64,000 nucleotides of DNA from Escherichia phage UFV-AREG1: sequence record KX009778. One strand, given 5' to 3'. The notes beneath the pieces were generated by a model. The model had not been told where the DNA came from. It saw only the letters and a list, made by a program, of their open reading frames with translations, and did not search any database. This document shows, piece after piece, positions 1,781 through 64,000 of this stretch; positions within the stretch are counted from its first letter, which is position 1, and every line of letters begins with the position of its first letter. The translations under genes and the position numbers were made by a program.

Positions 1781-2044
1781 TTATTTCATATTATTGAAAT
1801 ATTCTTCTGCGATTTCGTCGTTATCATGGTAAACTTTAGAAGACAGTTTAACATAACCTTCTGCCGTGAACATATTAATCACAACCTTTACAGTATACCA
1901 CTGACCATCTTCATTACCCATTACTGCGTAAGTTTCAAACATCGGATGATCAGGACCGATAACTTTAATATCATTCACTGTACGACCAAAATCTTCTGAA
2001 ACACATTTCATAAAGAAGTTGAACAGTTCTCCGTAATTATCCAT
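1781..2044 (-). CDS. Hypothetical early protein, 87 aa (start moved to internal ATG)
   Basis: Track ORF 1781..2176 has an N-terminal extension across a promoter; ATG at 2044 has GGAGA SD and a GTTTACA-N17-TACTAT early promoter just upstream. Confidence 0.5.
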   Translation of the reverse strand: MDNYGELFNFFMKCVSEDFGRTVNDIKVIGPDHPMFETYAVMGNEDGQWYTVKVVINMFTAEGYVKLSSKVYHDNDEIAEEYFNNMK

Positions 2045-2088
2045 TTCATTCTCCAAGTTGTTTTTCTGTATCAGTAGTTGATAGTTGT

Positions 2089-2118
2089 ATAGTACCATGG
2101 AAGAATAGGGATGTAAAC
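2089..2118 (-). promoter_or_regulatory. T4-type early promoter (GTTTACA -35, 17-nt spacer, TACTAT -10)
   Basis: Minus-strand sequence GTTTACAtccctattcttccatggTACTAT immediately upstream of the 87-aa gene. Confidence 0.55.
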
Positions 2119-2229
2119 AGTTTTGTGAAAAATTTTTTAAAAAGTTTTGGGGGAATTCTAGGGCAGGGAGGGGCAATTAAAGGATAGGATAATATATTAT
2201 AAAGGATAGAAACTAAATGATGCCTAGAG

Positions 2230-2287: not shown

Positions 2288-2761
2288 TTATTTGATTTGT
2301 TTAGCAGACCAAATGCGGTCTTTAATAATTTTTTGGATGTCTTCAATATACTCAAGAGAGTGAGCATGTGGGTTATCTTTGAAACTATAAGCACGAGCTA
2401 GCTTTTGGCCTTCAGTTTTGATTACTAAAAGCTCTTTAAGGATAGCTTCATATTTGGAGATAATTCCTTTAACGATATTTTTCTCTTGTGTGACTTTAGG
2501 ATCTGCTTTAGGAGCAGGTTTACCTGAAGCCTTTGCAAAAGCAGCGCCAGTAGCAACTAAACTTTTCCAGGCCATACTAACAGCATTCCCCGTAAATCCT
2601 TCTGCTTTCATGTCGCGAGCAAATTGGAATCGTGATTCATCAGAAGCATCTTTATAAGAATATTTACCCGCGGCAATGGCAGCTTTTGCAACAGCTTGAA
2701 TTTCAGTGCTAGATGCTTCATTTAACACCGCTTCATTTAAAAATTGAGCATATGATTTCAT
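2288..2761 (-). CDS. Internal-protein-like protein with capsid-targeting-sequence-like N-terminus, 157 aa
   Basis: N-terminus MKSYAQFLNEA resembles the T-even CTS (MKTYQEFIxEA) with LxE gp21-type cleavage motif; late promoter TATAAATA upstream; flanked by terminator hairpins. Confidence 0.6.
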   Translation of the reverse strand: MKSYAQFLNEAVLNEASSTEIQAVAKAAIAAGKYSYKDASDESRFQFARDMKAEGFTGNAVSMAWKSLVATGAAFAKASGKPAPKADPKVTQEKNIVKGIISKYEAILKELLVIKTEGQKLARAYSFKDNPHAHSLEYIEDIQKIIKDRIWSAKQIK

Positions 2762-3122: not shown

Positions 3123-3677
3123 TTACCGGTAGCGACCCGGTTTCTCATTTGGTATTTCAAATTGTGTAGATTTAGTATCTAATTTTTTAACTATGGAACT
3201 TATGTCATGAAAGAAAAACCATTCGCCATTTATATGGTCCTGATTATAAATGCTGTGCATATATTTTTCAAGTTCTACTGCATCCTGGGAATATCTAAAT
3301 GATACTATTTTAAAACTTTTAAACGGTGAAAATGTATTTGCTGTTATAACTCTAACATCAGGTTCTATACTTCTTCCTATTTTATAATAATTAGGATTTG
3401 TAGTATCTACCATTATGTATACGAAAGCCTGTCGATAGCTTTTTTCTATATCAAATTCATCTTTAAATTTCAAAAGATTTAGGGCGGCAGTCCTACAAAA
3501 TACTTTCCATTTTGACAAGCGTTTAGCTTTAGTCATAGAAAAGAATTTTTTCTTATCTGTTATTTTAAGAAAAGCAACATTTTCAATTAGTTCTTGTGTT
3601 ATTTCAAAATTACCATGGTATATTAATCCAGCTTTTATAGCCAAATTAATTTGGTCCCAGTCTACATCACTTCTCAT
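3123..3677 (-). CDS. T5orf172 / GIY-YIG-like domain protein, 184 aa
   Basis: C-terminal half carries FVYIMVDTTNPNYYKIGRS ... R ... E..E..MH ... NGEWFFF, matching the GIY-YIG-like T5orf172 signature; N-terminal 85 aa unassigned. Confidence 0.6.
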   Translation of the reverse strand: MRSDVDWDQINLAIKAGLIYHGNFEITQELIENVAFLKITDKKKFFSMTKAKRLSKWKVFCRTAALNLLKFKDEFDIEKSYRQAFVYIMVDTTNPNYYKIGRSIEPDVRVITANTFSPFKSFKIVSFRYSQDAVELEKYMHSIYNQDHINGEWFFFHDISSIVKKLDTKSTQFEIPNEKPGRYR

Positions 3678-3698
3678 AATATTATTCTCTCAATAATT

Positions 3699-3775
3699 TG
3701 GCCAGGGTGAAAGGATTCTAACCTTTAACCTGCGGTTTAGAGGACCGCTACTCTATACAATTGAGTTACACCCCG
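3699..3775 (-). tRNA. tRNA-Arg (anticodon TCT), CCA encoded
   Basis: Manual cloverleaf: acceptor CGGGGTG/CACCCTG, D-stem ACTC/GAGT, anticodon stem GCGGT/ACCGC with loop CCTCTAA, T-arm AAAGG-TTAGAAT-CCTTT. Confidence 0.8.
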
Positions 3776-3901
3776 TAATTAGTTCACAGCAATACCTACT
3801 CCAACAATCAAGATGTCTTCACACGAAATTAAGAGAAAAGTGATCAGTTCAACCCTTATAATCGCGTCAAGTAGATATTAATGTGACAACTGTCACAAGT
3901 T

Positions 3902-3976
3902 TGGCGGACATGCATGGATTCGAACCATGGACCAATTGATTAACAGTCAACTGCTCTACCACTGAGCTACACATCC
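3902..3976 (-). tRNA. tRNA-Asn (anticodon GTT), CCA encoded
   Basis: Manual cloverleaf: acceptor GGATGTG/CATGTCC, D-arm GCTC-AGTGGTA-GAGC, anticodon loop CTGTTAA, T-arm CATGG-TTCGAAT-CCATG. Confidence 0.75.
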
Positions 3977-3980
3977 AAAT

Positions 3981-4067
3981 TGGTGGGGAGTGATGGAGTC
4001 GAACCACCCGAGTCGCAATGACAATGGATTTACAGTCCACACCGCTACCTCTACGGGATAACTCCCC
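3981..4067 (-). tRNA. tRNA-Tyr (anticodon GTA), type II with long variable arm, CCA encoded
   Basis: Acceptor GGGGAGT/ACTCCCC, anticodon stem GTGGA/TCCAT with loop CTGTAAA, long variable arm, T-arm GGTGG-TTCGACT-CCATC; D-arm pairing is irregular. Confidence 0.6.
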
Positions 4068-4076
4068 AAATTAATT

Positions 4077-4153
4077 TGGTGACCCAGACCAGATTTGAAC
4101 TGGTAACCTTTCCCTTATGAGGGGACTGCTGCTAACCATTGAGCTACAGGGCC
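4077..4153 (-). tRNA. tRNA with CAT anticodon (Ile-lysidine type or elongator Met), CCA encoded
   Basis: T-arm ACCAG-TTCAAAT-CTGGT, anticodon loop CTCATAA; acceptor stem has one mismatch and one G-U. Confidence 0.6.
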
Positions 4154-4154
4154 T

Positions 4155-4230
4155 TGGTGCTGATTGACGGAATCGAACCGCCGACATCCTCATTACAAGT
4201 GAGGTGCTCTACCTACTGAGCTAAATCAGC
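4155..4230 (-). tRNA. tRNA-Thr (anticodon TGT), CCA encoded
   Basis: Acceptor GCTGATT/AATCAGC, D-arm GCTC-AGTAGGTA-GAGC, anticodon stem CCTCA/TGAGG with loop CTTGTAA, T-arm GGCGG-TTCGATT-CCGTC. Confidence 0.8.
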
Positions 4231-4232
4231 AA

Positions 4233-4319
4233 CGGAGGCGATAGGATTTGAACCTATGAGTCGCCGGAGCGACTGCCGGTTTTCAAGACCGGTGCATTAA
4301 ACCACTCTGCCACGCCTCC
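4233..4319 (-). tRNA. tRNA-Ser (anticodon TGA), type II
   Basis: Acceptor GGAGGCG/CGCCTCC, anticodon stem CCGGT/ACCGG with loop CTTGAAA, long variable arm, T-arm ATAGG-TTCAAAT-CCTAT; no encoded CCA. Confidence 0.75.
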
Positions 4320-4321
4320 AG

Positions 4322-4395
4322 TCTCCATACAAGGATTTGAACCTTGGACCTCCTGATCCCAAATCAGGCGCTCTACCAAACTGAGCTACACGGAG
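4322..4395 (-). tRNA. tRNA-Pro (anticodon TGG)
   Basis: Acceptor CTCCGTG/TATGGAG (two G-U), D-arm GCTC-AGTTTGGTA-GAGC, anticodon stem CCTGA/TCAGG with loop TTTGGGA, T-arm CAAGG-TTCAAAT-CCTTG. Confidence 0.75.
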
Positions 4396-4405
4396 TAAAT
4401 TAAAT

Positions 4406-4479
<74 letters not shown>

Positions 4480-4485
4480 AAACTT

Positions 4486-4572
4486 TGGTACGAGAAGTGG
4501 GACTCGAACCCACAAGGAAATCATTCCGCAGCATTTTAAGTGCTGTGCCTTTACCAATTTGACCATTCTCGC
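4486..4572 (-). tRNA. tRNA-Leu (anticodon TAA), type II, CCA encoded
   Basis: Acceptor GCGAGAA/TTCTCGT, anticodon stem CAGCA/TGCTG with loop CTTAAAA, long variable arm, T-arm TGTGG-GTTCGAGTC-CCACT region. Confidence 0.75.
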
Positions 4573-4573
4573 G

Positions 4574-4646
4574 CTGGGAATAAAGGACTCGAACCTTTGC
4601 ATCTAGCAGTCAAAGTGCTATGCCTTACCAACTTGGCTAATTCCCA
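4574..4646 (-). tRNA. tRNA-Gln (anticodon TTG)
   Basis: Acceptor TGGGAAT/ATTCCCA, anticodon stem TAGCA/TGCTA with loop CTTTGAC, T-arm AAAGG-TTCGAGT-CCTTT. Confidence 0.75.
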
Positions 4647-5423: not shown

Positions 5424-5601
5424 CTTTAGAAATTTTATCCATAACGATAGCGATTAAACCAATTAAAAATGCTACTACAAGTGAAAACACATTTTCTGCT
5501 GTAGTTAATAATCCGCATATAAATCCAGCAAACATTGAAAAACTAAAAGCAGAAGCAGAAATTGCAATAGCAACATTTCGAATTAATTCACAACGTTTCA
5601 T
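5416..5601 (-). CDS. Small membrane protein, 61 aa (start moved to internal ATG)
   Basis: Track ORF 5416..5670 extends across a promoter cassette; ATG at 5601 has GAGGAG SD; two predicted TM helices (AIAISASAFSFSMFAGFICGLL, VFSLVVAFLIGLIAIVM). Confidence 0.5.
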   Translation of the reverse strand: MKRCELIRNVAIAISASAFSFSMFAGFICGLLTTAENVFSLVVAFLIGLIAIVMDKISKGE

Positions 5602-5629
5602 TTTATTCTCCTCAGTAGTTGATAGGGTA

Positions 5630-5659
5630 ATAGTATCACTACTAAAACCCAATGTAAAC
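5630..5659 (-). promoter_or_regulatory. Early-promoter/stem-loop cassette (PeSL-like): GTTTACA-N17-TACTAT
   Basis: Minus-strand GTTTACA and TACTAT hexamers 17 nt apart, followed by the conserved GAGGAGAATAAAATG ribosome-binding module. Confidence 0.55.
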
Positions 5660-5662
5660 AAT

Positions 5663-5887
5663 TTATTCAACGCCAGCGGCTTTCAAAAGTTTTTTAAGAT
5701 TGGCAACACCTTGAGCAGAAAATGTGACCTTGCCACCTTTTTCACTGATAGAACCAACCAATTTAGCAAGTTTATCATTAGGAATTTTTTTAAAATCAGC
5801 CAATGTTCCATCAAAGGTTTTTGAAACAAAAGGCAGTTCGTCTTCGCGTCTTTTAGCTTCTACAATAAATTCTTGATATGTTTTCAT
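5663..5887 (-). CDS. Internal-protein-like protein with CTS, 74 aa
   Basis: N-terminus MKTYQEFIVEA matches the T-even capsid-targeting sequence; own promoter cassette upstream. Confidence 0.65.
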   Translation of the reverse strand: MKTYQEFIVEAKRREDELPFVSKTFDGTLADFKKIPNDKLAKLVGSISEKGGKVTFSAQGVANLKKLLKAAGVE

Positions 5888-5915
5888 TTTATTCTCCTCA
5901 GTAGTTGATAGGGTA

Positions 5916-5945
5916 ATAGTATCACTACCCCATCTAAAAGTAAAC
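5916..5945 (-). promoter_or_regulatory. Early-promoter/stem-loop cassette (PeSL-like)
   Basis: Minus-strand GTTTAC -35, TACTAT -10 lying in the loop of a GGGTA/TACCC stem, then GAGGAG SD. Confidence 0.55.
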
Positions 5946-5955
5946 GGTTTATAAA

Positions 5956-6264
5956 CTATTTTATTCCGCGTGATGCAATTGTGTTCTGCCGTTTAACGCC
6001 AGTTTGTTTAAAGTCATGATTGTCGATTTGATCGGTACGAGCAACTCCGAATGATGATTTGATCTTAGCTTTAGATCCTTTAGTTATAGAAATAAACATC
6101 TCGGAAGCCCCTTTCTTAAAGTCCGAAGCGATTACTTCAACGCCGTTCTTAGCAAGTGACTTCAGAATTGCCTCTGCATACTCATCGTCAAGACTCGTCT
6201 GAGTATTAATAACGAATGTCTTTGGCGCAGCCGCTTCATTGATAAATTCTTTGAAAGTTTTCAT
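5956..6264 (-). CDS. Internal-protein-like protein with CTS, 102 aa
   Basis: N-terminus MKTFKEFINEA (CTS); own promoter cassette upstream. Confidence 0.65.
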   Translation of the reverse strand: MKTFKEFINEAAAPKTFVINTQTSLDDEYAEAILKSLAKNGVEVIASDFKKGASEMFISITKGSKAKIKSSFGVARTDQIDNHDFKQTGVKRQNTIASRGIK

Positions 6265-6294
6265 TTTATTTTCCTAATTAAGTTTGATGAGATA

Positions 6295-6324
6295 ATAGTA
6301 TCACAACCCTATTTAAAAGTAAAC
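6295..6324 (-). promoter_or_regulatory. Early-promoter/stem-loop cassette (PeSL-like)
   Basis: Minus-strand GTTTAC -35 overlapping the stop of the upstream gene, TACTAT -10, then AGGAAAATAAAATG. Confidence 0.5.
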
Positions 6325-6597
6325 TCATTTTAAATAAATTGCGTATTTTTTATAACCCGCTGACTCATGACGAAGACCCTTATCATTAGCAAAACGCTCA
6401 ATGTTGTTAATTTGATTCTGGTCAAGTTCAGAGATGTCAAACACGAAAAAGTTACGTTTGTTACCAACTGTTACATAGTCAGTTAAATCAATATCATATA
6501 GGTAATTGATGTCAGCAATCAAAGTCTTGACAGCTTTGCTAATTTTTACTTTTTCGTTAAAAGTAGCTTCATTGATAAATTCTTGATATGTTTTCAT
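6325..6597 (-). CDS. Internal-protein-like protein with CTS, 90 aa
   Basis: N-terminus MKTYQEFINEA (CTS); own promoter cassette upstream. Confidence 0.65.
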   Translation of the reverse strand: MKTYQEFINEATFNEKVKISKAVKTLIADINYLYDIDLTDYVTVGNKRNFFVFDISELDQNQINNIERFANDKGLRHESAGYKKYAIYLK

Positions 6598-6625
6598 TTT
6601 ATTCTCCTCAGTAGTTGATAGGGTA

Positions 6626-6655
6626 ATAATATCACAACTAAAACCCTATGTAAAT
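6626..6655 (-). promoter_or_regulatory. Early-promoter/stem-loop cassette (PeSL-like)
   Basis: Minus-strand ATTTACA -35, 17-nt spacer, TATTAT -10, then GAGGAGAATAAAATG. Confidence 0.5.
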
Positions 6656-6673
6656 AACTTTGTGAAAAATTTA

Positions 6674-6961
6674 TTACAAAAGATTTTTAGCAATAATCTT
6701 GAGATGTGCCGCAGAAATGTGTTTAGCTTTAAACAACGCAGTTTCTTCAGCAGGAGAGATAACGATTGTAGCACCATCCTTTTTAGCAGACCACCCATCG
6801 CCTAGGTAAACAGTACCTTTGATTTCTTCGCCATCAACCAGACTAATCATTGGTTTACCTTCTCGTCCTTTATTTGCTTTAATAACTTCAGAAGTAAGAG
6901 TAGCTTCGGTAATAGTAGAAACCGGGGTAGTTGTAGAAGTAAATTCTTTGAAAGTTTTCAT
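6674..6961 (-). CDS. ipI: Internal protein I (IPI)-like, 95 aa; predicted 19-aa CTS leaving a 76-aa mature protein
   Basis: N-terminus MKTFKEFTSTTTPVSTITE|A with ITE gp21 cleavage motif; 95 aa precursor / 76 aa mature matches T4 IPI; located next to 57B as in T4. Confidence 0.7.
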   Translation of the reverse strand: MKTFKEFTSTTTPVSTITEATLTSEVIKANKGREGKPMISLVDGEEIKGTVYLGDGWSAKKDGATIVISPAEETALFKAKHISAAHLKIIAKNLL

Positions 6962-6982
6962 TTTATTTTCCTAATTAATTTT

Positions 6983-7021
6983 GATGAGGTAATAGTATCA
7001 CTACCTCATCAGTATGTAAAC
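6983..7021 (-). promoter_or_regulatory. Early-promoter/stem-loop cassette (PeSL-like) with perfect 9-bp hairpin
   Basis: Minus-strand GTTTACA-N17-TACTAT; the -10 lies in the loop of gatgaggta / tacctcatc (6983..7010). Confidence 0.6.
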
Positions 7022-7033
7022 AACTTTGTGAAA

Positions 7034-7730
<697 letters not shown>

Positions 7731-54943: not shown

Positions 54944-57001
54944 CTACATTTTGAACTTTTTAGACATTCTGTTGATGTTAACCAAAGAAGCTAAGATTTG
55001 AGAAACTTCGCTTTCCTCTTCTTTTGATTCTTCTACAAGGAATTGATTAAATCCAGCCATTGGACGAACTTCACCAGTTTCCATCAGATGGTCGCCATCA
55101 TATACTGATTCTTCTAATTGTTCAGAAGGAGGAACGATTGTACCTTCGATTAGATACTTATTATAAGCAGTTTCTTTCATCATGTACGTACTTACTTTAT
55201 TAATCTTCAGTAAAATTCCACGTGGTAGAATAACTTCAGCTTCTGATGGAAATCCTGATAAATGACCCGGAACGATAACTTTAACTCGTTCAGCTCCTTT
55301 AATTACCATACCTACATTAGTTTCAGCGTCTTCATTCGCATATGTAGAATGACTACCCATATGCATTAAATCTTCAGCATCAACTGAACCTTCTCCTTCA
55401 CCAGAAAATACTGCTCCGGAATCATCTAAGGCCATATAATTTTTACCATATTCACCGAAGATATTTGGCTTGAGTGAAGTAGATACAAAGTTCTTGAAAT
55501 AGAACATTTTATTTTCTATATTATGACGCAAAGTTTTAAAGGTAACTTCTTGCCCACGATAAAGAGTAGTTCCTGGAGGAAGAACTGAACCTTTAGAAAA
55601 TGCAGAATCCAGCGTCTCAATATGTTTAATAGCTCGTTCCATATATTCTTCACGGGTAGAATCAGGTTTACCTAAAAGGAATGAGTTCATTTCAACATAT
55701 GAATCTGCACAATAATCTTCAATTACATCAGATTCAGCCTGAGTTAATCCTTTTGGAGTTACTTCAGTGCTTGCATATTCATATGCCTGAGCAGCAGATT
55801 CATCAATTAATTTATAAATTCCATTCATTACAAATTGAATAATAGCTGTCTTTTCATCTGGTGTAGCTTTAGAACCTTTAACTAAATCATTGATAATTTT
55901 CTTAATAACATCAAAACTATTAGAAATATTAATGTCAGCAAGATCGCTTAAAATTTTATCAGTTTTATAATCAAAGAATTCTTTATTCTTTAAATATTCT
56001 TGAGAACCTTGATATGTTATATCGCTCTGCAGCTTGATAGATGGATCGCGTAAACGTGCATGGGCCAATGCAATATGATTTCGGAAGCTTTCTAGTTCAT
56101 AATCGCTAGATTTAAAACGAGAAGCACTTCTCATACCACCGATAGCTCCTTTGCTAAAGTTTGAACCAATCTGAATAACGCCAGAGTTCATTGATCCTTC
56201 TGCTTTATATACCGGAACTTTAGATTCAAACTCTTGATATTTCTTAGCAGCGAAGCTATCACCCTGGAGTGAAGCGTCAACAGTAGAATATTGAGCTTGG
56301 GCTGCTAATCGACGACTGATTTTAGTTTTCTGAATAACAGCTTGATCCGTGCGCTTATCATTTTCTAAAGCAATAGAAGCAGCAACAGCAACAGCTTTAG
56401 GAACAGCATTACCTGTTTTAACGTCTACATAAACATCACCAACCTTTGATTCAACTTTTGTGAATAACTCGGTTGAAATAGGAGGTACACCTGGAATGTC
56501 TTCTAATTTGGCATTTTTACGGTAAACCATAATATATGCGTACTTTTTATCATAATCCCAGATTTCCTTTAAAAGAACATATCGACCTGCTCCTTTAGTA
56601 CGTACTAAACGGTCAGCAATAACTTGCATTTGCCGAGCAGCGCCATTTGTTTTACTTTTTAGTACGCGGAATAGGCATGCATCAATTTTATACTGTTTCA
56701 TTGTTTGAAGAGCAGTATCAAAAACAGCATTAATGACGCCAATTGGATTTCCACCCAAGTTTTTAAGCTTAACTAATGATAGTTTCTCATTAACACCTAT
56801 CATTACGATATGCATCATTTTGTCGCCTGGCTTAACGTTTTTATTCGTATCACCGCCAGAGGTGTATGTACAAAATCTAAATCCAGGAAGCACGCTTTCT
56901 TCACCTGCTTGAATAGCAAAAATTTGAGGTATTTTATGCTTAGGATTTAAGTTAACAACCGGCGCCGAAGCGCCGTCAAATAATTCTGTAATAAGTTCCA
57001 T
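54944..57001 (-). CDS. alt: Alt-like NAD:protein ADP-ribosyltransferase, 685 aa (paralog A)
   Basis: R-S-ExE ART triad in C-terminal domain (LYRGQ, FVSTSL, SEAEVILPRG); N-terminus MELITE with gp21-type ITE cleavage motif; length close to T4 Alt. Confidence 0.8.
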   Translation of the reverse strand: MELITELFDGASAPVVNLNPKHKIPQIFAIQAGEESVLPGFRFCTYTSGGDTNKNVKPGDKMMHIVMIGVNEKLSLVKLKNLGGNPIGVINAVFDTALQTMKQYKIDACLFRVLKSKTNGAARQMQVIADRLVRTKGAGRYVLLKEIWDYDKKYAYIMVYRKNAKLEDIPGVPPISTELFTKVESKVGDVYVDVKTGNAVPKAVAVAASIALENDKRTDQAVIQKTKISRRLAAQAQYSTVDASLQGDSFAAKKYQEFESKVPVYKAEGSMNSGVIQIGSNFSKGAIGGMRSASRFKSSDYELESFRNHIALAHARLRDPSIKLQSDITYQGSQEYLKNKEFFDYKTDKILSDLADINISNSFDVIKKIINDLVKGSKATPDEKTAIIQFVMNGIYKLIDESAAQAYEYASTEVTPKGLTQAESDVIEDYCADSYVEMNSFLLGKPDSTREEYMERAIKHIETLDSAFSKGSVLPPGTTLYRGQEVTFKTLRHNIENKMFYFKNFVSTSLKPNIFGEYGKNYMALDDSGAVFSGEGEGSVDAEDLMHMGSHSTYANEDAETNVGMVIKGAERVKVIVPGHLSGFPSEAEVILPRGILLKINKVSTYMMKETAYNKYLIEGTIVPPSEQLEESVYDGDHLMETGEVRPMAGFNQFLVEESKEEESEVSQILASLVNINRMSKKFKM

Positions 57002-57004
57002 GAT

Positions 57005-59098
57005 TTATCCTTGAACGAACTTGTAAGGCATGTTTGTAATATCTATGCAAGACGCAATAATTCCAAGAGATGATTCTACTTTCTGTTTAATATTTGATGA
57101 AACAAATGATGCAAAGTCAACTCTGTCTTCTATTTCAATATCACCTGTCATTGCAACCAATTCACCAGTTTCCATTAAATGGTCTCCATCATAGATTACC
57201 GATTCGGTGAGCTCTTCCGTGGTCATAACTTCAGCTTGAATGAGTTTTGTATTATTAGATGTTGTTCCGTCATTATTAGAAGCATCGATTATTTTATTAA
57301 CTTTGACCATCAATCCACGCGGTAGAATAACTTCAGCTTCTGTTGCTATTCCGAGACTTCCTGGATATACAACATTAACTTTATGAGCTCCATCAATTGC
57401 CCATCCTATTTGAACTTTAACATATTCAGGATTTTCTTTATACGCTCTTATTTCGTTTGGATTAATAGTTATTCCTTCTTCATTTTTATCAACTGTTAAT
57501 TCATTGCGAGCTCCTGGTTCTAAAAGACCAATACCAGCATGTGTGATTCCAAAACGTCCAAAAATGATAGGAGTTAAAGAAGTAGATACAAAATTTCTGA
57601 AGTAGAACACTTTATTTTTAACTAACGCTTCATATATAGGAGCAGTCATACTTTGAGCACGATAAACTGTAATGCCTTCTGGTATACGGTCACCATTTTC
57701 AAAAGCTGAATCTAAGTTATTTATAGCAGATTCAATTTCTTTTTCACTCATTACATCATATCGTTCTGGATTGTAACGACCTAAAAGAAGATTATTGATG
57801 TCAGTATATCCTGAACCGCAATATTCTCTAATGCCACGCTTTTGTGATGGAGTATATTTAGAACCATCGCGGGCAATAGTAATATCAATCATTGGACCAG
57901 CACCAATTCCAGAAAAACTGTAAATCATTCGTTTGAGGAATTTAGTTTTTGCTGCGTTCCAGGAATTTTTAGTTATTTCTTCCCAGACTTCATCTGGTTG
58001 TCCTTTACGATTTTTATTATGATTAGCAAGCCATTTATCTTTATAATCTTCAAAGAATTGATTTACAGCTGCTGCGTATTTCTCTAAACATTTTATTGAA
58101 GTAGTTGGTTCATTTTTAATTGCATTAAAAATTACTTCTTTAATTTTTTCTGAAACTTCACCGACTTGACTCATTGGAAAGAATTTATAATCATAGTGAA
58201 GTTCATCTGCCGTTCCTTCAGCAATAATTTTTGCTGCCTTTGTTTTAGAAGCTAATGAATTAATTCCAATTTTCATTTCTTCTGCTTCGGGAATTAAAGG
58301 TGCAGTAGCTGGTTTATTAAAATTAGCTGCTGTAGATTCATACTTCTGGAATAATTCACTTTCAAATCTAGAAGATTCCAATGACTGACTTTGTGCAATT
58401 GCTCTACGGGAAATTTTAACTTTAACGATTACAGCTTGGTCAGAACGTTTATCATTTTCTTGCGCAATAGATGCTGCAATTGCTTCATTTTTAGTTACTT
58501 GAGCTCCAGTATCTTTATTGATATAAACATCACCGACCTTCGATTCAACTTTAGTAAAGAGTTCAGTGCTAATTTCTGGAACTCCTGGAATGTCTTCTAG
58601 TGATACATTTTTGCGATGTATAAGAATATATGCATACTTTTTATCATAATCCCAGAGTTCCTTAAGAAGGACGTATCTGCCACCTGAACGACTACGGATA
58701 AGTCTATCAGCAATAACTTGAATTTGTCGAGCTTGGCCAGCAGTTTTAGACTTAAGAATACGAAGCATACAAGCATCAATTTTATACTGACGCATTGTTT
58801 GCATTGCAACAGTAAAAACTGAATTGATATAATTAATTGGGCTTGGCCCAAGACCTTTCAATTTAGCAATTGAACCTTTAGCAGTTAATGTAAAAGGAAC
58901 AATATGCATCATTTTATCGCCCATCTTTAAATCACGATTAGTATCACCTCCAGATGTATAGGTACATAAACGAAAGCCTGGTTGTTCAATTGCGTCATCG
59001 ACATGAACTGAAAAAATTTGTGGTATCTTCTTCTTTGGATTTAAGTTTGTAATCGGAAGAGTAGTATCTTCGTCAAATAATTCTGTAATAAGTTCCAT
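57005..59098 (-). CDS. alt: Alt-like NAD:protein ADP-ribosyltransferase, 697 aa (paralog B)
   Basis: Same N-terminus MELITELFD and conserved first ~200 aa as paralog A; ART triad VYRAQ, FVSTSL, TEAEVILPRG; divergent central region. Confidence 0.8.
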   Translation of the reverse strand: MELITELFDEDTTLPITNLNPKKKIPQIFSVHVDDAIEQPGFRLCTYTSGGDTNRDLKMGDKMMHIVPFTLTAKGSIAKLKGLGPSPINYINSVFTVAMQTMRQYKIDACMLRILKSKTAGQARQIQVIADRLIRSRSGGRYVLLKELWDYDKKYAYILIHRKNVSLEDIPGVPEISTELFTKVESKVGDVYINKDTGAQVTKNEAIAASIAQENDKRSDQAVIVKVKISRRAIAQSQSLESSRFESELFQKYESTAANFNKPATAPLIPEAEEMKIGINSLASKTKAAKIIAEGTADELHYDYKFFPMSQVGEVSEKIKEVIFNAIKNEPTTSIKCLEKYAAAVNQFFEDYKDKWLANHNKNRKGQPDEVWEEITKNSWNAAKTKFLKRMIYSFSGIGAGPMIDITIARDGSKYTPSQKRGIREYCGSGYTDINNLLLGRYNPERYDVMSEKEIESAINNLDSAFENGDRIPEGITVYRAQSMTAPIYEALVKNKVFYFRNFVSTSLTPIIFGRFGITHAGIGLLEPGARNELTVDKNEEGITINPNEIRAYKENPEYVKVQIGWAIDGAHKVNVVYPGSLGIATEAEVILPRGLMVKVNKIIDASNNDGTTSNNTKLIQAEVMTTEELTESVIYDGDHLMETGELVAMTGDIEIEDRVDFASFVSSNIKQKVESSLGIIASCIDITNMPYKFVQG

Positions 59099-62750: not shown

Positions 62751-63037
62751 TAGAACCTCATCTGAAAACCATGCGATTTAACATTACCACCACCAATGTC
62801 AGAAATATTAATTTCACGCGCAATTGAAGGGTCAATGTCAATTTCGCGATTGAGTTTAGTGATAGCTAAAGTATCACGCCCATTTACTGTACGGAATTCT
62901 AAAGGACAAACCACATCAACGTAATTTTTAATCGATTCACTAGTAGGCTGCAAATGAGCAGGAAGGTCTTTAGGCGCCTTTGAGAAAACAACTTCACAGA
63001 AATTTTTGCGGGTATCAAAATAAGTAGTCATAAACAT
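62750..63037 (-). CDS. Hypothetical protein, 95 aa
   Basis: ORF in the 30.x early gene block. Confidence 0.55.
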   Translation of the reverse strand: MFMTTYFDTRKNFCEVVFSKAPKDLPAHLQPTSESIKNYVDVVCPLEFRTVNGRDTLAITKLNREIDIDPSIAREINISDIGGGNVKSHGFQMRF

Positions 63038-63054
63038 AATATTTTCCTCAGTAA

Positions 63055-63068
63055 GGGGCCGAAGCCCC
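63055..63068 (-). terminator. UUCG-tetraloop hairpin between 30.x genes
   Basis: ggggc-cgaa-gcccc; minus transcript GGGGCUUCGGCCCC followed by a U-rich tract. Confidence 0.45.
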
Positions 63069-63078
63069 TCATTTTATT

Positions 63079-63444
63079 TTAAATATCAAATTCGTTAAGA
63101 ACTACATCAAAGATTGCTTCAAGATGCTCAGGTTTAGCTCTGTTACTCAGAATATGACGAATCCAAGTTTTAACTAGAAGCTTGCGATTAGCACCATTCC
63201 AGCAAGGATGAGTCCCTAAATCGCGTTGACGGAAATCATCATCTAATGCGATTTTGAAGTTGGAACCTTCCATCGTGATGGAAACTGTAATACCATTTTC
63301 AAATCGCATATAAACGTAGTTAGGAGTCATATACTGTTCAATTTCGCATACTGATCCATTTTGATGTTTCCAAAGGCAGATGGTATCAATAGAACCTGCA
63401 ATACCATTAGAAACATATTTACGTTCAAAGTTGATGTAGTTCAT
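63079..63444 (-). CDS. Hypothetical protein, 121 aa
   Basis: ORF in the 30.x early gene block. Confidence 0.55.
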   Translation of the reverse strand: MNYINFERKYVSNGIAGSIDTICLWKHQNGSVCEIEQYMTPNYVYMRFENGITVSITMEGSNFKIALDDDFRQRDLGTHPCWNGANRKLLVKTWIRHILSNRAKPEHLEAIFDVVLNEFDI

Positions 63445-63512
63445 TTTTATTCTCCGAGATGTTTAATTGCGGTACAGGTATATAATATCATATCCTGTAC
63501 CAAAGTAAACAA

Positions 63513-63845
63513 TTATTTTACTACTTTCCAATGCTTCATGTCAAGTTTACCAACTTTTTTCATCTTCTCAATTAAGCGTTCGGCACGTTGGCGAGCTGTA
63601 ACATAATGCCATTCGCCTAATTCATTTTGTTCAATTTTTCCAACGATTACTGTATTCAATTCATAAATCCAACCAGTAAAGAAATTATGAACTTGAATTG
63701 TAAAGGTGAAATCTGTTCCCATACCTTCTGTTGTTTCTACTTCAATAATATCACCTTCAACTGCCATTAAGAACCACATAGTTTCATCATATTTACCATT
63801 GAAGCATTTAGTTTTAACTGTAGCGTTCAGATTAATCGTTTTCAT
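63513..63845 (-). CDS. Hypothetical protein, 110 aa, behind a PeSL-like cassette
   Basis: ORF with the same upstream promoter/RBS cassette as the ip-locus genes; no CTS. Confidence 0.55.
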   Translation of the reverse strand: MKTINLNATVKTKCFNGKYDETMWFLMAVEGDIIEVETTEGMGTDFTFTIQVHNFFTGWIYELNTVIVGKIEQNELGEWHYVTARQRAERLIEKMKKVGKLDMKHWKVVK

Positions 63846-63863
63846 TTTATTCTCCTTTGTTTG

Positions 63864-63902
63864 TGTAAGATAATACTATCACAAAGGAACTATACTGTAA
63901 AC
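63864..63902 (-). promoter_or_regulatory. Early-promoter/stem-loop cassette (PeSL-like): GTTTACA-N17-TAGTAT
   Basis: Minus-strand GTTTACA -35, TAGTAT -10 within the loop of cctttgt / acaaagg hairpin, then AGGAGAATAAAATG. Confidence 0.55.
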
Positions 63903-63932
63903 AACTTTATGCAATCTTTGGAAAATAAAAAA

Positions 63933-63950
63933 GGACTCCCGAAGGAGTCC
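63933..63950 (-). terminator. Intrinsic terminator hairpin (minus strand)
   Basis: ggactcc-cgaa-ggagtcc; on the minus transcript followed by UUUUUUAUUUU; directly after the stop of a gene entering from the right edge. Confidence 0.55.
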
Positions 63951-63955
63951 TCAAC

Positions 63956-64000
63956 TTATGCTTTCTGCTTACCAAAACGAGAAGCATCATCTCGAAGAAC
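63956..64000 (-). CDS. Partial CDS (C-terminal 14 codons of a gene entering from beyond the window end)
   Basis: Minus-strand frame open from window edge to TAA at 63956..63958, followed by the terminator hairpin. Confidence 0.25.
   Translation of the reverse strand, partial: VLRDDASRFGKQKA

Follow-up and report, generated by a model that had tools for sequence, protein, structure and literature searches.

Near the right-hand end of the DNA analysed here, a stretch of 64,000 nucleotides from Escherichia phage UFV-AREG1 (sequence record KX009778; hereafter the window), a promoter and a stem-loop lie directly upstream of a small gene of 110 codons. An earlier note on this DNA took them for a distant copy of a cassette that is found repeatedly at the ip locus, about 57 kb away, and proposed that the cassette itself moves or serves as a target of recombination. 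The question is whether the element arrived as such a copy or belongs to the gene behind it, and what, in either case, it marks.

The sequence upstream of gene 30.8

The window comes from a T4-like phage (Tequatrovirus), and its positions 63000-64000 share 99.7% identity with Escherichia phage vB_EcoM_ASO78A and 97.7% with T4. The 110-aa open reading frame is T4 gene 30.8 (Pfam Phage_30_8, E = 1.6e-58), with 30.9 upstream and 30.7 downstream, all on the minus strand. The flagged element consists of the early promoter, leader and ribosome-binding site of this gene. The features of the region are as follows, in the direction of transcription.

63921..63952, minus strand: intrinsic terminator after gene 30.9, GAGGACTCC-ttcg-GGAGTCCTT then TTTTTATTTT; hairpin at 63952..63931 followed by a T-run
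63903..63920, minus strand: A/T-rich upstream region, ccaaagattgcataaagtt, the stretch ending in CATAAAGTT
63897..63902, minus strand: -35 GTTTAC, the T4 early-promoter hexamer
63852..63889, minus strand: inverted repeat around the -10, with arms UUCCUUUGU (63889..63881) and ACAAAGGAG (63860..63852)
63873..63881, minus strand: extended -10 TG-a-TAGTAT found by promoter scan, TG at 63881..63880 and TAGTAT at 63878..63873
63843..63855, minus strand: ribosome-binding site (RBS) and start codon of gene 30.8, GGAGAATAAAATG
63513..63845, minus strand: gene 30.8, 110 aa, variable cargo between two cassettes

The promoter has the layout of the T4 early class, whose members are sigma-70 promoters of the 'uber' UP/-35/TGn/-10 type (Wilkens & Rueger and Miller et al. 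2003, as presented in Hinton 2010, PMC2988021). The spacer is 18 nt in the GTTTAC register and ends in TG-a; in the register of the earlier note the same sequence reads TTTACA-17-TAGTAT. Upstream of the -35 stands ttttttattttccaaagattgcataaagtt, which has the A/T-rich composition of a putative UP-like element, and the A/T-rich region as a whole may be read as one (PMC2988021; PMC1524935). The block CAYAAAGTT abuts the -35, and is common to several early promoters, including promoters of the related Tequatrovirus BCH953P2 that do not belong to ip genes. Between the -10 and the ATG lie 27 nt that contain GGAGAATAAA; the ATG is at 63845, and the Shine-Dalgarno (SD) sequence GGAG is 7 nt 5′ of it. 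Thus all the sequence characters of a T4-type early promoter are present, namely the -35, the TGn/-10 spacing, the A/T-rich upstream region, and the orientation toward a gene with an SD sequence. The depositors of the ASO78A record independently marked two terminators and a T4 early promoter at the matching places. An Rfam search found no family over the cassette and matched only tRNAs. Activity of the promoter is predicted from its sequence, with a transcription start that would fall at about 63866, some 7 nt past the -10 and 20 nt before the ATG. Taken as a whole, the flagged sequence is very probably an ordinary cassette of the T4 early type that serves as the regulatory module of gene 30.8.

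The terminator between 30.9 and 30.8 was found by a terminator scan and also forms in the minimum free energy (MFE) fold. It corresponds to the stem-loop part of a module of the PeSL (promoter-early stem-loop) type, and it is kept in T2, G8, fFiEco06, and 101117BS1. Relatives of the Dhakavirus type as well as RB69 carry a terminator hairpin of their own at the same position, with a different sequence.

The leader contains GGAGAATAAAA (63855..63845, minus strand), a sequence that fits the strong RegB/S1 cleavage consensus GG*AGRAYARAA at every position. Sites of this kind are found where the translation of T4 early mRNAs is initiated (Durand et al., PMC3014915). The site at 30.8 resembles the described strong RegB sites both in its exact match and in its place in what would be the translation initiation region of an early gene, and RegB cleavage of the 30.8 message is suggested by this match. 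Five exact occurrences of GGAGAATAAAA are found in the window (0.36 expected), all at the ribosome-binding sites of early genes: three ip genes, 30.8, and 30.7. BCH953P2 likewise has five, every one behind a GTTTAC promoter.

The module can be proposed to work as follows. The intrinsic terminator would stop transcription arriving from 30.9, and the strong sigma-70 early promoter, through its A/T-rich region, GTTTAC, TGn and TAGTAT, would restart it some 20 nt upstream of the ATG. In the short leader, GGAGAATAAAA would serve as Shine-Dalgarno sequence and RegB match in one, so that the message may be translated at once and inactivated minutes later.

The early-promoter family and the ip-locus cassettes

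The earlier note was right that a promoter/stem-loop cassette precedes the 110-aa gene, although its stem, at 9 bp, is slightly longer than was described. Whether it is the same cassette as that of the ip genes depends on how similar T4 early promoters are in general, and three further sets of features enter the comparison.

5596..7043, minus strand: ip-locus cassettes, with -35 elements starting at 7021, 6655 (ATTTAC), 6324, 5945, and 5659
2042..2140, minus strand: cassette of gene e.8, TTTTCACAAAACT-GTTTAC-N18-TACTAT-ACAACTATCAACTACTGA...GGAGAATGAAATG, with the promoter site at 2118..2089
63443..63510, minus strand: cassette of gene 30.7, GTTTAC-N17-TATTAT, with hairpin GGTACAGGATAT/ATATACCTGTACC around the -10 and RBS GGAGAATAAAAATG

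The ip locus at 5.6-7.0 kb corresponds to the T4 ipI region, which holds several ip-type genes here versus one in T4; in each of its cassettes the -10 occupies the tip of a stem-loop. The whole genome of BCH953P2 was scanned for GTTTAC-N18-TAnnnT followed by an SD sequence, an ATG and an open reading frame. Approximately 31 such cassettes were found, spread across all early regions, with a long consensus in common that reads roughly tttTCACAAAgtt-GTTTAC-N14-gtgg-TAcTAT-acaaCTATCAACTACtGAGGAGAAtaaaATGAAA. This agrees with the description of T4 early promoters as UP/-35/TGn/-10 promoters with extra conserved regions (PMC2988021; PMC1524935).

Identity was scored without gaps in a fixed 85-nt register, and about 28 other early promoters of BCH953P2 served as the background. 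The 30.8 cassette is identical to the five ip cassettes at 32-49 of 85 positions. Pairs of unrelated early promoters have a mean of 38 identities, a 95th percentile of 49 and a maximum of 66, and 30.8 itself reaches 47/85 with each of three non-ip promoters (B-50829, B-81219, and B-51537). Specific homology between the 30.8 and ip cassettes was rejected on this basis, since its scores lie inside the background of unrelated pairs.

The similarity between 30.8 and the ip cassettes does extend past the two promoter hexamers. The blocks that they have in common are CAYAAAGTTGTTTACA, GTGATAnTATTA, and AGGAGAATAAAATGAAAAC, and the longest exact words that the 30.8 cassette has in common with other parts of the window measure 19 nt (AGGAGAATAAAATGAAAAC) and 13 nt (AAAGTTGTTTACA). 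GGAGAATAAAATGAAA occurs exactly four times in the window (seven times with one mismatch allowed), against 0.02 expected. A 29-nt family has members at 2112-2140, 6649-6677, 7015-7043, and 63896-63924. The 19-nt word covers the RBS and start of 30.8 and of three ip cassettes and contains GGAGAATAAAA. This longest identity therefore overlaps the RegB consensus match, which offers a functional explanation for it. The dot plot at a word size of 20-30 bp that had been suggested for detecting copies would be empty, the longest exact shared word being 19 nt. The alternative posed alongside it, similarity limited to the hexamers expected of any T4 early promoter, is not what is found either: the similarity goes beyond the hexamers, but it consists of a family-wide consensus and the 19-nt RBS word and does not identify a specific copy.

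A transposed or converted ip copy is a rival explanation, under which the cassettes of 30.8 and e.8 belong to a mobile element that moved some 57 kb and carried or captured genes. The nearest non-orthologous neighbors of 30.8 are indeed the ip cassette W-7021 and its orthologue (49-51/85), the 19-nt RBS/start word is exact in 30.8 and three ip cassettes, and the placement of the -10 in a hairpin is an architecture common to both. Furthermore, mini-circles of PeSLs have been demonstrated in RB49/phi1 (PMC2839356). However, the lead of W-7021 over other promoters amounts to 2-4 nt of 85 and is inside the background range, and the 30.8-type RBS is present also at 30.7 and at two other non-ip cassettes. 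The stem arms of 30.8 and the ip cassettes are unrelated, with no sequence in common between them. The leader peptide of the internal proteins (MKTYQEFI/MKTFKEFI type) is absent from gp30.8 (MKTINLNATVK), which shares only MKT with it, and also from gp e.8 (MDNYGELF). In Tequatrovirus, Dhakavirus, and Mosigvirus alike, an orthologous cassette occupies the 30.8 locus, which indicates that the cassette is old and resident there. We consider an origin by transposition or conversion from the ip locus very unlikely, and the claim that these are copies of one and the same ip cassette does not hold. On this sequence evidence, the likeness is the family resemblance of T4 early promoters.

The same holds for the second site that had been singled out, near 2 kb. 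The 87-aa open reading frame at 1781..2044 (minus strand) is T4 gene e.8, and a promoter is present at 2089..2118 as had been noticed; its description as a degenerate ip version fails. No ip cassette resembles the e.8 cassette as closely as five non-ip promoters do; B-67731 and B-51537 each match it at 64/85 positions, and two others at 57/85. The e.8 cassette falls in another promoter subfamily, a tighter one, and lacks a hairpin, its fold being non-significant (z = -0.96). Spacers near-identical to its own (ATCCCTGTTCTTCCATGG) are found at several genome positions.

Deletions and allele swaps at the borders of small early genes

Comparison of relatives at the 30.8 and e.8 loci gave no evidence that the cassette transposes by itself, and the suggestion that it moves finds nothing in its favor, with the orthologous cassette in place in three genera. 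What had been proposed in its stead, a recombination target, fared better. Gene 30.8 is absent from seven records among the matches listed, among them T2, the near-identical SV76, and the distinct Salmonella phage Manna (171 kb). In T2 and Manna a complete 30.8 cassette is fused to the 30.7 open reading frame, and the junction lies inside the repeat GGAGAATAAA(A)ATGAA. Two copies of this repeat are found in the window exactly 400 nt apart, the left copy being the RBS of 30.8 and the right copy the RBS of 30.7, GGAGAATAAAAATG; the halves of the T2 junction correspondingly sit 400 nt further apart in other phages. The search for junctions of the T2 type used a query of 301 nt, an 81-nt query having been ambiguous because split matches were joined.

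Other relatives have lost or exchanged different segments. G8 is without both 30.8 and 30.7, and its cassette is joined to the terminator and RBS of 30.6, with no clean repeat at the junction. In fFiEco06 and 101117BS1 the place of 30.8 is taken by another allele, a gp30.8 of 122 aa that is 44% identical to that of the window and 54% identical to that of RB69, while gp30.7 is identical at 120 of 121 positions. Nucleotide identity in this swap is 97-100% through GGAGAATAAAATGAAA, falls to about 50% over the open reading frame, and exceeds 95% from the GTTTAC of 30.7 onward, so that the borders are exactly the RBS/ATG and the next GTTTAC. At the e.8 end, the T4 e.7 module, comprising a hairpin promoter, the open reading frame and the e.6 promoter, is swapped for a GTGTAC promoter and an unrelated 58-aa open reading frame, the swap extending from the e.8 stop codon to the e.6 SD. 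The synteny comparison at 63.5 kb and 2 kb that the earlier note had called for thus reveals variation at both places. A further deletion, in the unverified record CJY920, begins at codon 6 of 30.8 and extends through 30.4; its junction is within open reading frames and not in a cassette. A search of IMG/VR for relatives of gp30.8 returned 9 loci only.

These junctions, like the anatomy of the cassette and its membership in the early-promoter family, are matters of observation. Judged from the sequences compared, they support the view that the cassettes mark recombination seams and variable early genes: 30.8 is lacking in T2, Manna, and G8 and replaced in fFiEco06 and 101117BS1. A mechanism may be proposed in which the small early genes are bordered by recurrent blocks, ...AAAGTT-GTTTAC on the 5′ side and GGAGAATAAAATGAA on the 3′ side. 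Since these blocks are repeated at gene borders, they would supply microhomologies for deleting or replacing the gene between two cassettes. The blocks that recur at cassette borders can be written AAAGTTGTTTAC and GGAGRAYARAATG.

The same pattern might arise without any recombinogenic role of the cassettes, if their likeness reflects selection on strong promoters and RegB-sensitive ribosome-binding sites, and the borders reflect the survival of recombinants in which genes are intact. The shared blocks are all known functional elements, namely UP/-35/TGn/-10 and the RegB site, and the junctions of CJY920 and G8 lie off clean cassette homology. Against this, the junctions of T2 and Manna fall exactly inside a direct repeat of 11-15 nt, which is the signature of a homology-dependent deletion; the identity of the swapped alleles changes, at either end, a few nucleotides at most from a conserved block; and the same border pattern recurs at e.7. 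A pure by-product of function is accordingly an improbable account, although the survival of viable recombinants, as opposed to preferential recombination, could partly explain why junctions are seen at gene borders. The two explanations differ in emphasis only. With microhomology at the cassette borders as the preferred reading, gene 30.8 appears as accessory cargo that comes in two classes of allele and that T2, Manna, and G8 lack, and the e.7 slot is likewise a position for accessory cargo. The value for annotation is that cassettes delimit exchangeable single-gene modules. In the T2-type deletion, an RBS of 11-15 nt that matches the RegB consensus is the microhomology of a precise 400-nt loss, and a regulatory consensus coincides with a recombination seam.

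The inverted repeat around the -10 and known systems

The 30.8 hairpin folds at -12.1 kcal/mol (z = -3.06; 1 of 200 shuffles as good) and has a stem of 9 bp, including one G-U, and a 20-nt loop. Its 3′ arm pairs with the whole SD GGAG and its 5′ arm is in the promoter spacer. Because the 5′ arm is upstream of the predicted transcription start, formation of the hairpin would require read-through RNA or single-stranded DNA. Several related cassettes fold comparably: that of 30.7 at -16.1 kcal/mol (z = -3.95), with a hairpin that is kept in RB69; the ip cassettes at 7021, 5945, and 6655 at -17.4 (z = -5.6), -16.1 (z = -3.0), and -11.4 kcal/mol (z = -1.9), respectively; and that of T4 e.7 at -18.1 kcal/mol (z = -6.1).

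For the family as a whole, permuted pairs were formed by matching the 5′ side of one cassette to the 3′ side of another. Perfect inverted repeats of at least 6 nt flank the -10 in 16 of 31 cassettes versus 16% of permuted pairs, and repeats of at least 7 nt do so in 8 of 31 versus 5%. The perfect repeat at 30.8 measures 8 nt in the window and 9 nt in BCH953P2, and about 1% of permuted pairs have at least 8 nt. This agrees with the existence of PeSL subclasses whose stem-loop overlaps the -10 (PMC2839356).

Complementarity between spacer and SD was considered separately. In the orthologous cassettes of the Dhakavirus type and of RB69, the MFE structure pairs a spacer UCUCC with the SD GGAGA, in sequences that differ from those of the window; shuffled sequences fold equally well (z = -1.2 and -0.4, respectively). 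Across the family, 5 of 31 cassettes have spacer-SD complementarity of at least 6 nt where approximately 1-2 are expected. A general rule of an anti-SD in the spacer of early cassettes was dropped in view of this weak enrichment, and the idea was kept for this locus, where the complement is the longest among the 31. Within Tequatrovirus, whose orthologues are very similar, the 30.8 hairpin has no compensatory change, only U/C opposite G; the cassettes of more distant genera are non-alignable.

In read-through RNA the hairpin would hide both the SD and the RegB site, with the result that 30.8 would be translated mainly from its own promoter. This masking role, which derives from the predicted fold, is put forward tentatively, at somewhat less than even chances. 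A fortuitous hairpin without function is about equally plausible. The stem is short, with one G-U in its 9 bp, and the loop is 20 nt long; compensatory changes are absent within Tequatrovirus; the orthologous folds in other genera are non-significant; and read-through would be limited by the strong terminator upstream. Chance sits less easily with a z of -3.06 matched by 1 of 200 shuffles, with the longest spacer-SD complement of 31 cassettes, with the enrichment of inverted repeats around the -10 across the family, and with an anti-SD that recurs in the spacer, in other sequence, in three genera. A bolder proposal, which we regard as unlikely, is that promoter-embedded inverted repeats are selected, and that the 30.8 spacer acts as an anti-SD in Tequatrovirus, Dhakavirus, and Mosigvirus, such that translation and exposure to RegB would be confined to transcripts from the gene's own promoter. 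These hairpins, when formed on single-stranded DNA, might also bias recombination to the borders of cassettes. If this were true, selected repeats would extend to early promoters the logic known from the late promoters of e, soc, and 49, and would tie it mechanistically to modular shuffling.

Masking of the SD on long transcripts has been demonstrated for T4 e, soc, 49, and I-TevI, with late promoters (PMC3014915). The predicted arrangement at 30.8 is alike in that the 5′ arm is upstream of the start defined by the promoter, which would hide the SD in long transcripts only. The difference is that those genes have an internal late promoter and a demonstrated effect, whereas 30.8 has an early promoter, a terminator upstream, and a predicted effect.

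As for the promoter itself, 30.8 shares with T4 early promoters the GTTTAC, the 17/18-nt spacing, the TG and TAnnnT, the A/T-rich upstream region, and a place 5′ of a small early open reading frame. Nothing material differs, the -10 being TAGTAT rather than TATAAT. The shuffling of genes by cassettes was described for the IP loci of T-even phages by Repoila in 1994, as credited by both PMC2839356 and PMC4122927; such cassettes were formalized as PeSLs by Arbiol 2010 (PMC2839356) and extended to the PST/T4 pair by Comeau 2014 (PMC4122927). The intergenic segments of the IP locus, of about 70 bp (Repoila et al. 1994), resemble the 30.8 cassette in their RBS, GGAGAATAAAATGAAAAC, and in an early promoter whose -10 sits at a stem-loop tip. 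Unlike them, 30.8 is outside the IP locus, has an unrelated stem, matches them at the level of the promoter background, and lacks the IP leader.

The 30.8 module is alike to PeSLs in combining a terminator or stem-loop, an early promoter, an SD, and an ATG in one intergenic unit, and in its setting, a hyperplastic region of small open reading frames with deletions or replacements in close relatives adjoining it and junctions in the cassette. The original PeSLs of RB49/phi1 have TTGACA promoters and G/C-rich stems, whereas 30.8 has a T4-type promoter. It also differs from them in having two stem-loops, the upstream terminator and a weak, A/T-rich one around the -10. Compared with the PST/T4 PeSL consensus TTTACW-N17-TAYWAT (Comeau 2014, PMC4122927), TTTACA-N17-TAGTAT fits at the -35 and departs at position 3 of the -10, with G instead of Y. 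Cassette-bounded gene shuffling in T-even phages has thus been in print since 1994, with PeSLs following in 2010 and 2014, and as a discovery the 30.8 cassette matters little, being an annotated T4 early promoter with a known mode of shuffling. Mildly new are the RegB-matching RBS as the microhomology of a deletion and the pairing of spacer and SD at 30.8, in different sequence, in three genera. Ultimately, set beside these systems, the 30.8 element is real, ordinary, and of an already-known kind.

Early-promoter cassettes and a 30.8 deletion

The early-promoter cassette upstream of e.8, an 87-aa gene, belongs to a tight subfamily in which both the spacers (ATCCCTGTTCTTCCATGG) and the leaders (ACAACTATCAACTACTGATACAG) are near-identical, although its members, at least five of them, are widely scattered over the genome. 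The likeness among these cassettes far exceeds that of the pair formed by the 30.8 and internal-protein (ip) cassettes.

Tight-subfamily cassettes
Window, 2042-2140: cassette of e.8
BCH953P2, a related Tequatrovirus (L004-L007), positions 142523, 101109, 67731, 51537 and 127838: one cassette each

In CJY920 (L023, an unverified phage record), at about minus-strand position 2459 of the locus, codon 6 of 30.8 is fused to the last codons of 30.4. The junction of this deletion of about 1.3 kb lies within coding sequence and not in a cassette.

Replacement and insertion around e.8

At 1502-1780, a GTGTAC-type promoter and a 58-aa ORF stand in place of T4 gene e.7, its own promoter and hairpin, and the e.6 promoter. 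The borders of this replacement are the e.8 stop codon and the e.6 Shine-Dalgarno, and a Pfam search with the 58-aa ORF returned no match.

Relative to T4, the window also carries about 519 additional bp at 2284-2802 (2248-2838 with the flanks).

Features of the insertion
2248-2283 and 2803-2838: flanking direct repeats of a terminator-like hairpin, 36 nt each, 94% identical
2288..2761, minus strand: 157-aa ORF

The N-terminus of this ORF, MKSYAQFLNEA, is similar to an internal-protein leader, and a late-promoter-like motif, TATAAATA, lies upstream; a Pfam search with the 157-aa ORF likewise gave no match. The insertion looks like a gene module that entered via terminator duplication.

Diverged repeats and the tRNA region

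Several diverged direct repeats, spaced by about 2.1 kb and 71-80% identical, occur at 55053-59056.

Direct-repeat pairs
55.05-55.5 kb and 57.1-57.6 kb
56.8 kb and 58.9 kb

These repeats suggest tandem paralogous genes, probably in the alt region. The matching region of BCH953P2 contains two near-identical early promoters.

A further difference from T4 is found at 3123-4646.

ORF and tRNA genes of this segment
3123..3677: unrelated 184-aa ORF, in place of the T4 segB homing-endonuclease region
3702-4646: tRNA genes, ten by Rfam in the window versus eight annotated in T4T
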